Under the pieces are notes generated by a model. That model searched no databases, was not told where the DNA came from, and saw only the letters and a list, made by a program, of their open reading frames with translations. Made by a program: the position numbers and the translations under genes. Positions 27,208-31,318 of a stretch of DNA of 64,000 bases are shown here, piece after piece; position 1 is the first letter of the stretch, and each line of letters starts with the position of its first letter. The stretch lies in sequence record PV648359; one strand, written 5' to 3'. The stretch is from Escherichia phage LF82-1.

Positions 27208-30200
27208 ATGGCTACTTTAAAACAAATACAATTTAAAAGAAGCAAAACTGCAGGAGCACGTCCTGCCGCTTCAGTATTAGCCGAAGGTGAATTGGCTATA
27301 AACTTAAAAGACCGTGTACTTTTTACTAAAGATGACCAAGGAAATATTATTGATCTAGGTTTTGCTAAAGGTGGTAGTATTGACGGGAATGTTATTCATA
27401 CTGGCAATTACAACCAAACTGGTGATTATACTTTAAATGGCGTCTTCACACAGACGGGTAATTTTAATTTAACTGGTATTGCTCGAGTAACTCGCGATAT
27501 TATTGCCGCCGGGCAGATTATGACTGAAGGCGGAGAACTTATTACAAAAAGTTCAGGTACAGCACATGTTCGTTTTTTCGATGGCAATAGTCGCGAACGT
27601 GGAATCATTTATGCCCCGGCTAATGATGGTTTAACTACACAAGTACTTAATATCAGGGTTCAAGACTACGCTGCTGGTAGCGAAAGCATTTATGCATTTT
27701 CAGGCAGTGGCCTATTTATTTCACCTGAAGTATCAGCACATAAATCTATTTCGTCTCCACAAATTCTGACCGACAAAGTTATTACAAACGGGAAGAAGGC
27801 AGGAGATTATGATATCTATTCATTAGCAAATAACACTCCATTGGCAGAAAGCGAAACGGCTATTAACCACCTCCGTGTTATGCGAAATGCCGTAGGATCT
27901 GGTATATTCCATGAAGTTAAAGATAACGACGGGATAACCTGGTACGCCGGTGACGGGTTAGATGCCTATCTTTGGTCGTTTACCTGGTCCGGTGGATTGA
28001 AAGCAGGCCATTCTATTTCTGTTGGTACTCCTGGTGGCAATAAAGGATACTCTGAATTAGGGACTGCTTCAATTTCTCTTGGCGATAATGATACCGGGCT
28101 AAAATGGCATCAGGACGGATATTTCTATACAGTAAACAACGGAACAAGAACTTTCCTTTACAGCCCTGAATCAACTGTAAGCCTTAGAAAAATGGTCATG
28201 GGTTATTCTGTAAACGGCAACGATTTAACTACGCCGCCAACAGAAAACTATGCTTTGGCTACTGTCGTGACATATCACGATAATAACGCGTTTGGAGATG
28301 GCCAGACTCTTTTAGGATATTATCAAGGCGGTAATTATCATCACTATTTCCGCGGTAAAGGTACTACAAACATTAATACTCACGGCGGTTTGTTGGTTAC
28401 TCCTGGTAATATTGATGTTATTGGCGGTTCTGTTAATATAGATGGTAGAAATAATTCTTCTACACTAATGTTTAGAGGCAACACAACAGGATACAGCTCG
28501 GTTGATAATATGGATATTAAAGTTTGGGGTAATACGTTTGTTGATCCAAGCGGAGGTATCCGTAAAAACATTATGGAAATTTCTGATGCAACTAGCTGGA
28601 TGAGCTATATTCAAAGACTTACTACTGGCGAAGTAGAAATGAACGTTAATGGTTCATTTGAATCATCTGGTGTTACTGCTGGAGATAGAGGAGTTCACAC
28701 AACAGGTGAAATTTCATCTGGAGCAGTGAATGCTCTTCGTATTTGGAACGCAGATTATGGAGCCATTTTTAGACGTTCAGAAGGAAGTCTTCATATTATT
28801 CCAACTGCTTATGGCGAAGGCAAAGATGGCGATATTGGTCCACTTCGCCCATTTAGTATGGCTTTAGATACTGGTAAAGTTACTATTCCAGATTTACAAT
28901 CAAGTTACAATACGTTCGCTGCTAACGGTTATATTAAATTTGTTGGTCATGGAGCGGGTGCCGGCGGTTATGACATTCAATATGCTCAAGCGGCTCCTAT
29001 TTTCCAGGAAATTGATGATGATGCTGTAAGCAAATATTATCCTATTGTTAAACAGAAGTTTTTAAACGGTAAATCTGTTTGGTCTTTAGGTACCGAAATT
29101 GAATCAGGTACATTTGTTTTACACCATATCAAAGAAGATGGATCACAAGGCCATACGTCTCGTTTTAATCAAGACGGTACCGTTAACTTCCCGGATAACG
29201 TTCTGGTCGGCGGGGGCGAAGCTGCTATTGCTCGTAATGGTAATATTTTCTCGGATATTTGGAAAACGTTTACTTCAGCAGGAGACATTACAAATATTCG
29301 CGATGCAATAGCTACTCGTGTTGCTAAAGAAGGCGATACGATGACAGGTCGTTTAACTCTTAAAACCAACTCAGATGCTGTTGTTATTGATTATCCGGCA
29401 GATGAAGCGGGTTATGTTAAGGGTAAAAAAGGTGGTGCTGATAACTGGTATGTCGGTAACGGTGGTGCTGATAATGGTTTAGCCTTCTGGAGCTTCCAAT
29501 CCCAAGGCGGTATTAATATTAACCCTAATGGCGAGGTTATTTTAGCCCCACAAGGTGTTGCAATGTTCAATATAAACCGCGACCGTATTCATATGAATGG
29601 TTCCAACTGGATTGCACATAAATCTGGTGCATGGGGCGACCAATGGGGCTTAGAAGCACCTTATTTCCTTGATTTTGGTAGCGTTGGCGAAGACAGTTAT
29701 TATCCTATCATTAAAGGCAGGTCTGTAATTAGTGGTCAAGGATATACTACTTCTGTTGACCTTGGTATTAGACGTACACCTCAAGCATGGGGACAAGCGA
29801 TAATTCGAGTTGGTAATGCCGAAGGCGCTGACGGTCCTGTGGGTGTTTTTGAATTCCATTCGTCTGGACGATTCTATAGCCCTAATATGGTTCAAACTCC
29901 TGCAATCGGTGTTGGTACTGATAATGGACTTGGTGCTCCTAGTATTGCAATCGGCGATGATGACACTGGCCTATCACATGGCGGTGATGGCCGAATCAAT
30001 ATGGTTGCCAATGGTATACATATCGCAAACTGGGGTGCAGGCTATCAATCTCATCCTGGCCTTTGGGATTCAAATGGAGCCTTTTGGACAGAAGCTGGCA
30101 GAGCAATTGTTTCTCATGGTCATTTAGTTCAGGCGAATGACAGCTATTCAACGTATGTCCGTGATGTTTATGTCCGCTCTGATATTCGTGTTAAAAAGAA

Positions 30201-30513
30201 CCTCGTTAAATTTGAAAATGCTTCTGAGAAGCTTTCTAAAATTAACGGTTACACTTATATGCAGAAACGTGGAACAGATGAAGAAGGTAATCAGAAATGG
30301 GAACCTAACGCTGGTTTGATAGCTCAAGAAGTTCAAGCTATTTTACCAGAATTAGTTGAAGGCGACCTAGATGGTGAAGCTTTACTTCGTTTGAACTATA
30401 ACGGTGTAATTGGTTTAAATACAGCTGCAATCAATGAGCATACTGCAGAAATTGCAGAACTTAAGTCAGAGATTGAAGAGCTTAAAAAATTAGTTAAATC
30501 ATTGTTAAAATAA
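27208..30513 (+). CDS. 37: long tail fibre distal subunit gp37 with C-terminal intramolecular-chaperone (S74-like) domain
   Basis: 1101 aa; C-terminal ...RSDIRVKKN... followed by coiled-coil [18 protein letters not shown] typical of auto-cleaving chaperone domains. Confidence 0.88.
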
Positions 30514-30544
30514 TAAGAGGGGCCTAAGCCCCTTGGAGGTTTAT

Positions 30545-31318
30545 ATGGCAGTAGCAGGACCGTGGATAGGAACTTCTGCAAGAGCCCAGACAGGAGACCC
30601 TTGGATGGGTGGTGCCGCACAGAGATTGAGAATGGGAATTCCGTTTTGGATGAGCAATATGAACGGCCGGTCTGTTGAAGTAATTCACACACTTGGAGCA
30701 GACCATAACTTCAATGGTCAATGGTTCCGAGATAGATGTTTTGAGGCAGGTAGTGCACCTATAGTGTTTAATATCACCGGAAATTTGGTATCATATAGTA
30801 AAGATGTTCCATTATTCTTTATGTATGGCGATACGCCAAATGAATATGTTACTTTGAATATTCATGGTGGAGTTCATATGTGGGGACGAGGTGGTAACGG
30901 TACTGTAAACGGAAACCCAGGCACTAATGGTGGCGATGTAATCCAAAATGATATCGGCGGAAGACTTCGTATTTGGAACTATGGCGTTATTGCATCAGGC
31001 GGTGGCGGAGGTGGTGCAGTGTCATTACAGAATAGCTGGGCGCCAAATGCTACAGCAGGTGGCGGTGGTGGTAGACCATTTGGCCTCGGCGGAGGCGGCG
31101 TTAATTGGCCTGGTGGTAATGCTAGTTATGACGCCCCGGGCGGTGCCGGTTACACTTCCCAATTCGGCGGTGGTAATGGCGGGGATGCTGGAGGTCGGGG
31201 CGGAGATGGATGGGGTAATCACTTATCTAGATCTGGCGGTGGTGCTCCTGGCAGAGCAGTATTCGGAAGTTCACCGTCATGGGGTGCTACAGGCACAATC
31301 TACGGCTCCTGGATTTAA
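30545..31318 (+). CDS. 38: T2-type receptor-binding adhesin gp38 with glycine-rich motifs
   Basis: Poly-Gly tracts ([36 protein letters not shown]); start taken at ATG 30545 after RBS GGAGG. Confidence 0.8.

Follow-up and report, generated by a model that had tools for sequence, protein, structure and literature searches.

Genes 37 and 38 of this phage very probably encode the module at the distal end of a long tail fibre of the T2/RB69 T-even type, in which gp37 would free itself of a C-terminal S74 domain, gp38 would dock onto the exposed end and an OmpF-type receptor would be bound. Both genes were analysed within a window of 64 kb, the whole stretch of DNA under study, which matches Escherichia phage LF82-5 (Mosigvirus, PV660449.1) at 100% identity and has the gene order 34-35-36-37-38-t. 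We observed the domain identity of both products, conserved residues at the dyad and docking positions, the gene order and the near-identity to characterised phages, and found no sequence feature that contradicts the fibre-tip model. The sole publication on the phage is a genome announcement (PMC12509680). Coordinates of the features are given in Table 1.

Table 1. Features of the fibre-tip locus and its surroundings (positions in the 64-kb window).
Feature	Position	Strand	Basis
T4-type late promoter motif TATAAATA upstream of g36	26509..26516	+	Motif scan
gp37 predicted mature part, aa 1-990, whose end ...RDVYVR990 is the predicted gp38 docking surface	27208..30177	+	Alignment with S16 gp37 (PDB 6F45_A)
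gp37 Peptidase_S74 intramolecular chaperone / auto-cleavage domain, aa 991-1101 and stop codon	30178..30513	+	Pfam PF13884, 6F45_A
Predicted catalytic dyad S991 (30178-30180) and K996 (30193-30195)	30178..30195	+	Alignments with S16, T2 and MYRF
C-terminal amphipathic helix of the chaperone domain, aa 1080-1097	30445..30498	+	Hydrophobic residues in heptad a/d pattern
7-bp G+C-rich hairpin in the g37-g38 spacer	30517..30534	+	Stem in MFE and centroid folds
gp38 N-terminal attachment domain, aa 1-39, with W7 and W20 (W35 just beyond)	30545..30661	+	Pfam Gp38_N PF21721
gp38 adhesin body, aa 45-257 and stop: beta-helix linker, glycine-rich specificity domain	30677..31318	+	Pfam GP38 PF05268
gp38 loop codons variable among sibling LF82 isolates: S164, N187, P189	31036..31109	+	Isolate comparison
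Late promoter motif TATAAATA before holin gene t	31337..31344	+	3' boundary of the fibre operon

The C-terminal domain of gp37

The gp37 ORF (27208-30513), annotated in GenBank as 'long tail fiber protein distal subunit', encodes a protein of 1101 amino acids. A Pfam scan identified Peptidase_S74 (PF13884) at residues 991-1050 (E 7.4e-13, profile positions 1-57 of 58) with 49 bits against a curated cut-off of 22, and detected no other C-terminal domain family. S16 gp37 (PDB 6F45_A) aligned with the protein through the cleavage site up to the final residue (E 2.9e-45). With the chaperone part alone, matches were obtained to 6F45_A (E 3e-34), to the MYRF ICA domain 7DC3 (E 0.007) and to the phage tail fibre 8JOV (E 0.05). 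These results bear out the initial annotation, which had proposed an S74-like chaperone domain at the end of gp37. The features lie at the place it gave for them, except that its starting point, 30130 (aa 975), is 16 residues upstream of S991 (30178), where the S74 domain begins.

S991, the first residue after the scissile R990-S991 bond, is the predicted nucleophile, and the lysine at +5 has the canonical spacing; both fall in the motif spanning aa 988-997. Residues S991, D992, R994 and K996 were invariant in an alignment of gp37 from this phage, RB69, T2 and S16, in which the dyad falls on DLNVS^SDRRIKK of S16 and NVYIRSDIRLK of T2. Both residues also aligned with SDERLK of 8JOV and, in the MYRF chain 7DC3 (ADLRAK), with positions 49 and 54; we take these to be MYRF S587, which is Ala in 7DC3, and K592. 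Cleavage of MYRF is abolished by either S587A or K592A; in endoNF the corresponding residues are S911 and K916 (PMC8326128). Thus, the Ser-Lys dyad whose absence on alignment had been named as speaking against the reading is present.

Self-cleavage of gp37 is therefore predicted by homology, and the fragment released would comprise the last 111 of the 1101 residues (S991-K1101). According to PMC7917993, S16 gp37 is cut at the site aligned above and releases a chaperone of 113 amino acids; gp37 of T2 and T6 is likewise processed proteolytically (PMC3157838). The C-terminal helix shows the heptad pattern expected of the coiled coil that the initial annotation had placed in the gp37 C-terminus, and is predicted from this pattern to form a trimeric coiled coil; in S16 gp37 and MYRF ICA, the region aligned with it is likewise that of the C-terminal helix.

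The S74-like domain could instead be a degenerate relic, perhaps a folding aid, that stays uncleaved while gp38 attaches in another way. The sources consulted contain no demonstration of cleavage for this phage or any Mosigvirus, which would suit such a reading; against it, neither the dyad nor the SDxRxK motif around it is disrupted, and the five residues preceding the site, DVYVR, match the docking strand DVYIR discussed for the fPS phages (PMC7917993). In addition, the chaperone domain is 95-98% identical in RB69, FL31, JS10 and CEV1 whereas identity in the adjoining shaft ranges from 26% to 100%, which indicates strong purifying selection on the domain. We consider a relic highly improbable, and an active, self-removing chaperone remains the preferred interpretation.

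gp38 belongs to the T2-type adhesin family

g38 lies directly downstream of g37, with its C-terminal S74 domain, and upstream of the holin gene t. Its product (30545-31318, 257 aa) matched the T2-type adhesin family across its full length, with Gp38_N (PF21721) covering residues 1-39 (E 6.4e-20, profile positions 1-39 of 40) and GP38 (PF05268) residues 45-257 (E 3.5e-83, profile positions 1-218 of 218). Residues 1-257 also matched PDB entries 9V85 (E 1.2e-74) and 6F45_D, the S16 gp38 (E 3.8e-47), and gp38 is 48% identical to its counterparts in both T2 and S16, as expected from the initial assignment to the T2/S16-type adhesins. With Pfam and PDB E-values from 1e-13 to 1e-83, the features of gp37 and gp38 are not due to chance.

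Tryptophans W7, W20 and W35 were invariant in this phage, RB69, T2 and S16; in S16 gp38, tryptophans dock onto the gp37 tip (PMC7917993). Glycine makes up 25% of the protein and 35% of residues 111-257, with runs of six (152-157), five (172-176), four (182-185) and three (208-210 and 231-233) residues and ten GG pairs, so that the poly-glycine tracts and short variable segments read from the sequence at the outset were confirmed. Invariant columns include GRGG (114-117), G152-157, G172-176 followed by RP, G182-183, NGG (211-213) and GGA (232-234), and between these conserved motifs the segments are variable, forming alternating hypervariable loops.

The single-sequence AlphaFold2 model of gp38 was unusable (mean pLDDT 31, pTM 0.18), and thus a polyglycine-II sandwich fold is proposed from homology to the solved S16 gp38, 6F45_D (48% identity and the E-value given above). 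On the same grounds of homology, we infer that gp38 would be part of the virion with a gp38:gp37 stoichiometry of 1:3.

Several relatives, among them RB69 (AY303349) and JS10, have the homologous gene entered in GenBank as 'distal long tail fiber assembly catalyst', as would fit a gp38 of the T4 type, that is, an assembly chaperone absent from the virion, with the gp37 C-terminus itself binding the receptor. The label is inherited from T4 nomenclature. Genomic position and gene numbers are alike in T4, but there gp38 is an unrelated protein, a chaperone that the virion lacks, and receptor binding falls to a tip of gp37 itself (PMC3157838, PMC7917993). In the phage analysed here the Pfam matches are to T2-type families only: gp38 corresponds over its full length to PF21721, PF05268 and the S16 adhesin structure, and gp37 ends in the S74 chaperone. 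The RefSeq note for RB69 also sets the T2-type adhesin apart from the unrelated T4 gp38. A role of gp38 as chaperone only was accordingly rejected on the Pfam family matches, and we give it practically no credence; gp38 is treated below as a T2-type adhesin.

Comparison with known fibre tips

The two-gene architecture is common to this phage and the S16 gp37-gp38 tip (PDB 6F45), described by Dunne et al. (2018) and cited here through PMC7917993 and PMC12032242. The C-terminal 200 residues of gp37 are 52% identical to those of S16, including the SDxRxK site and the entire chaperone domain, and the identity of gp38 extends over its full length, with the three tryptophans and the glycine motifs kept. 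The two phages differ in the residue before the scissile bond (R990 here, S in S16), in a 12-residue insertion in the gp37 tip and in the hypervariable loops of gp38, of which HVS2 is 5 residues longer. The receptor of S16 is Salmonella OmpC, whereas the gp38 clade of the present phage is linked to OmpF.

T2 (AP018813), the prototype of the class, has the same 36-37-38-t order, a gp37 that likewise ends with the SDIRxK motif and this chaperone domain, and a gp38 with the same glycine-motif framework. Its gp37 is longer (1341 versus 1101 aa), its chaperone domain is shorter C-terminally and its hypervariable loops differ; T2 uses FadL (PMC3157838).

Close relatives are the proteins of the Mosigvirus phages RB69 and FL31, to which gp38 is 97.7% and 95.7% identical, respectively; their chaperone domains are 96-98% identical and the flanking genes are alike. 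The gp38 N-terminal attachment region carries five substitutions relative to RB69 and eleven relative to FL31, with T10 here replacing W10 of RB69. Residues 701-900 of gp37 are only 53-63% identical to RB69 and FL31, versus 88-93% to JS10 and CEV1, which shows that the shaft is mosaic.

At a greater distance, the K1F endoNF chaperone and MYRF ICA (PF13884, MEROPS S74) belong to the same Pfam family; as in gp37, their Ser-Lys dyad, with +5 spacing, starts at the first domain residue, the domain follows a trimeric fibre or beta-helix on its C-terminal side, and a helix closes it. The similarity to MYRF is distant (E 0.007), and the passenger, a sialidase or a transcription factor in those proteins, is here the tip of a T-even tail fibre.

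Transcription signals and the g37-g38 spacer

On the plus strand of the 64-kb window, late promoter motifs were found only at 21475 (before g34), 26509 (before g36) and 31337 (before t). The overall number of such motifs across the window does not exceed that expected by chance, and thus position is the sole argument for late promoters. Given that no such motif occurs on the plus strand between that at 26509 and g38, g36, g37 and g38 are probably expressed as a single late transcript. Gene t (31364-32023) encodes a holin (Pfam Phage_holin_T, E 5.6e-89). An Rfam scan of 29500-32100 gave no match at E<=1, and scans for sigma-70 promoters and terminators returned counts equal to the shuffled expectation.

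The sole notable feature was the spacer hairpin, located directly 5' of the g38 Shine-Dalgarno sequence GGAGG (30535-30539). It is kept in RB69, FL31, JS10 and T2, in the last with the stem altered on both sides (AGAGGGC/GCCCTCT). The loop is C(UUCG)G in RB69, FL31 and T2, UUAG in JS10 and CUAA in this phage, and the structure was called terminator-like on the minus strand only.

g38 starts at ATG 30545, which is preceded by the GGAGG and is also the start given in GenBank; the TTG at 30533, listed for the ORF, was rejected. Three ORFs overlapping g38 (30948-31325 on the plus strand, 31025-31222 and 30396-30692 on the minus strand), none of which is annotated in GenBank, were judged to be by-products of G+C-rich glycine codons.

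Proposed assembly of the fibre tip

Following probable joint transcription of g36, g37 and g38 late in infection, gp37 would trimerise, with S991-K1101 acting as an endosialidase-type (Peptidase_S74) chaperone that templates folding of the trimeric tip. S991, activated by K996, would then attack the R990-S991 bond, so that the chaperone domain removes itself. The new C-terminus of the trimer, ...RDVYVR990, may serve as a hydrophobic platform on which one gp38 docks via its N-terminal domain (W7, W20, W35). The remainder of gp38 would form the glycine-rich polyglycine-II sandwich scaffold, and its distal hypervariable loops would bind an outer-membrane protein and thereby set host range; the primary receptor may be the porin OmpF, with a contribution of the LPS core.

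Sibling LF82 isolates and gp38 loop variation

Two sibling LF82 isolates compared with this phage over 64 kb showed differences almost confined to gp38 loop codons. In LF82-3, the gp38 substitutions N187R (31103-05, AAT>CGG) and P189A (31109, C>G) are the only differences, and in LF82-2 gp38 S164R is accompanied by one other site only. S164R (31036, C>A) is present in LF82-2, -16 and -31.

At the family level, gp38 variable segments determine host range (PMC3157838, PMC12032242), as the initial annotation had suggested for this protein, and the restriction of sibling differences almost entirely to the gp38 loops echoes this. The LF82-3 allele alters four of seven adjacent nucleotides (AATTGGCCT to CGGTGGGCT), at a site where fPS-90, TH12 and RB69 all retain N-W-P. 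A search of 50,697 phage records yielded no donor for this four-nucleotide allele, the only match at 100% being LF82-3 itself. For mutations in the hypervariable segments, Trojet et al. are said to have speculated about localised error-prone repair or micro-conversion. S164, N187 and P189 might be contacts by which the lineage adapts to the cell surface of LF82, a Crohn's-associated strain, with the LF82-3 allele arising by one of these two processes and not by ordinary point mutation; we hold this combined proposal to be unlikely.

Predicted receptor

Residues 84-257 of gp38 are identical to those of FL31, and L181I is the sole difference from RB69 in the specificity domain; on this basis OmpF, with a contribution of the LPS core, is the predicted primary receptor. 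The gp38 clade has been tied to OmpF in three independent studies, of RB69/RB51/SV76 (PMC3157838), fPS-2/fPS-90 (PMC7917993) and FL31/FL33/FL34 (PMC12032242), and the receptor is reported to be predictable from gp38 phylogeny. fPS-2, whose gp38 is 91% identical to the one described here, uses OmpF and LPS (PMC7917993).

Even if the architecture is right, the primary receptor on LF82 might be another porin, FhuA, TolC or the LF82 LPS/O-antigen. RB69 needs FhuA and the full LPS core in addition to OmpF (PMC3157838). FL31 was placed among the OmpF/TolC-dependent phages, but plaquing on K-12 ompF and tolC mutants dropped by only about 1 log, under the threshold set in that study (PMC12032242); the receptor evidence for FL31 is thus weak, and the isolation host LF82 is distinct from K-12. 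The charge-changing loop substitutions S164R and N187R in the siblings also suggest ongoing adaptation to the LF82 surface. Weighed against the agreement of the three studies and the reported predictive value of gp38 phylogeny, a primary receptor other than OmpF seems somewhat unlikely, and OmpF is retained as the prediction.

Significance

T2/S16-type fibre tips are already known genetically, biochemically and structurally, and the exact sequence is already in GenBank, so the locus is of little value as a discovery; its practical use is to guide annotation and the design of phage therapy. In the records of the LF82 phages, gp38 has no name more specific than 'tail fiber protein', and in many relatives it is still misleadingly called 'assembly catalyst' after T4. 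Recognising gp38 as an adhesin leads to a receptor prediction, the OmpF clade, for the phages that have been put forward for use against LF82, an adherent-invasive E. coli, and the three variable loop residues are candidate sites at which host range could be engineered or resistance anticipated.

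Genomic context of the fibre tip

Over 29600-31400 the sequence matches Escherichia phage LF82-5 (PV660449.1) at 100% identity, as it does several sibling isolates; window positions are given by PV660449.1 positions minus 32000. The exact fibre-tip sequence had already been deposited. LF82-5 belongs to Mosigvirus (Straboviridae, Tevenvirinae), was obtained with the adherent-invasive E. coli strain LF82 as isolation host, and has been described in a genome announcement only, with automatic annotation. The tip of gp37 and the following gp38 lie in the long-tail-fibre operon (see table) and, judged from sequence, form a textbook T2/S16-type fibre tip. 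This was the reading of the initial annotation, whose observation was confirmed and whose interpretation was supported.

Coordinates of the fibre operon, the spacer hairpin and the segments of gp37, with amino acid identities to other phages
Feature	Position (nt)	gp37 residues	Remarks
g34	21517-25350
g35	25359-26483
g36	26543-27199
g37	27208-30513
gp37 segment		401-700	88-100% vs RB69, FL31, CEV1; 26-54% vs JS10
gp37 segment		701-900	53-63% vs RB69, FL31; 88-93% vs JS10, CEV1
gp37 tip		901-990	72-83% vs RB69, FL31, JS10, CEV1
gp37 chaperone domain		991-1101	95-98% vs RB69, FL31, JS10, CEV1
7-bp G+C-rich hairpin	30517-30534		In the 31-nt g37-g38 spacer, abutting the g38 Shine-Dalgarno/ribosome-binding site
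g38	30545-31318
Holin gene t	31364-32023

The mechanical open reading frame of holin gene t begins at ATG 31352, the annotated ATG 31364, preceded by GGAGG, being the more plausible start. Residues 58-131 of the hinge protein gp35 matched the Pfam family ILEI (PF15711; E 6.7e-7, 30.2 bits vs a cut-off of 27), an interleukin-like EMT inducer/FAM3-type domain that is unexpected in a tail-fibre hinge.

On the + strand of the window, the T4 late-promoter motif TATAAATA was located at 21475, 26509 and 31337, 27-42 nt upstream of the late gene starts of g34, g36 and t, and none was found before g35, g37 or g38. Over the window as a whole, the motif is as frequent as expected by chance. Because + strand copies occur only before g34, g36 and t, g36, g37 and g38 probably form one late transcript, a reading based on motif position. 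The spacer hairpin is kept in phages RB69, FL31, JS10 and T2, with changes on both sides of the stem in T2; the loop is a C(UUCG)G tetraloop in RB69, FL31 and T2, UUAG in JS10 and CUAA in the window phage. No Rfam family matched in the fibre-tip region.

Gp37 ends in a Peptidase_S74-like chaperone domain

The peptide and the coiled-coil helix from which a Peptidase_S74-like domain had been proposed were located at gp37 residues 988-997 and 1080-1097, the latter with regularly spaced a/d hydrophobic residues. Pfam placed Peptidase_S74 ("chaperone of endosialidase") at residues 991-1050 with 49 bits vs a gathering score of 22, and the last 196 residues of gp37 aligned end to end with the crystallised S16 gp37 fragment (6F45_A, E 2.9e-45), in agreement with that proposal. 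Only the start suggested for the feature, 30130, needed correction, since the domain itself begins 48 nt further downstream, at S991 (30178). [quoted passage not shown] S991, D992, R994 and K996 were invariant in a four-way gp37 alignment of the window phage, RB69, T2 and S16, so that the Ser-Lys dyad, S991/K996, is there on alignment.

Gp37 of S16 is cleaved at DLNVS^SDRRIKK, releasing a 113-residue chaperone and exposing the gp38 docking surface (PMC7917993), and proteolytic processing of T2/T6 gp37 is also known (PMC3157838, citing Drexler et al. 1986). Cleavage of MYRF is abolished by S587A and K592A, residues equivalent to S911/K916 of the endosialidase endoNF (PMC8326128). In the window phage, the scissile bond predicted from the alignment is R990|S991; a cut there would release 111 residues and leave a mature gp37 ending in ...RDVYVR, which resembles a DVYIR strand considered in work on the fPS phages.

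The identities to related phages indicate that the gp37 shaft (27208-30177) is of mosaic ancestry, identity to CEV1 being only 53% at residues 201-300, and the pattern is the usual one for shuffled fibre genes that keep a conserved module for assembly. Residues 453-550 matched the Pfam Gp34_trimer domain.

Gp38 is a T2-type adhesin by sequence

As initially described, the downstream gene encodes 257 residues with poly-glycine tracts. It starts from an ATG at 30545, located five bases after GGAGG (30535-39), and its product has runs of 6, 5, 4, 3 and 3 glycines plus ten GG pairs. Glycine content is 25% overall and 35% in residues 111-257. Two Pfam families cover the protein, GP38 with its whole profile (E 3.5e-83) and Gp38_N (E 6.4e-20). 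PDB searches matched 9V85, a fusion of GFP with gp38 (E 1.2e-74), and aligned residues 1-257 to residues 1-249 of S16 gp38 (6F45_D, E 3.8e-47). Identity was 98% to RB69 and 48% to both T2 and S16. In the alignment of these four proteins the glycine motifs are invariant with variable loops between them, as are W7, W20 and W35; in S16, gp38 docks on the tip of gp37 through these tryptophans. The family is common, with tblastn matches in 842 phage records. Taken together, these matches identify gp38 as a T2-type adhesin, as had been proposed. The gp38 chaperone of T4, considered as an alternative identity, is an unrelated protein; the "assembly catalyst" label that several relatives carry was inherited from T4 gene nomenclature, a point on which the RB69 RefSeq note is explicit.

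Predicted receptor

Residues 84-257 of gp38 are identical in FL31, all 11 differences falling within residues 4-83. Of the six positions that differ from RB69, L181I lies in a glycine motif and the other five in the attachment region. RB69 and RB51 depend on FhuA and a full LPS core as well as on OmpF (PMC3157838), and FL31 has been placed among OmpF/TolC-dependent phages, with a drop in plaquing of only about 1 log (PMC12032242). Phage fPS-2, whose gp38 is 91% identical to that of the window, uses OmpF and LPS. Because published receptor data for this gp38 clade point to OmpF, we consider OmpF plus LPS core the best prediction and a fairly likely one, held with lower certainty than the fibre-tip architecture.

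Sibling isolates differ in gp38 loops

Siblings LF82-2 and LF82-3 were compared with the window phage across the whole 64 kb, and LF82-16 and LF82-31 in the 7-kb fibre region. LF82-3 differed solely at 31103-31105 and 31109 (gp38 N187R, a whole-codon change from AAT to CGG, and P189A), an allele for which neither a donor in the phage collection nor another phage record was found. LF82-2 differed solely at 31036 (gp38 S164R) and at 8914, where G>A gives R50C in a minus-strand "inhibitor of host transcription" gene (8498-9061). In LF82-16 and LF82-31, 31036 (S164R) was the sole difference within the fibre region.

Counted as three mutational events, two of the sibling differences fall in g38; for a gene taking up 1.2% of the window, a uniform distribution of events gives P about 4e-4. 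Residues 164, 187 and 189 all lie in gp38 loops that follow the second and third of the long glycine runs, and single changes in such hypervariable segments alter host range in the gp38 family (PMC3157838). The sibling loop changes fit this known behaviour and provide independent support for gp38 as the selected host-recognition surface.
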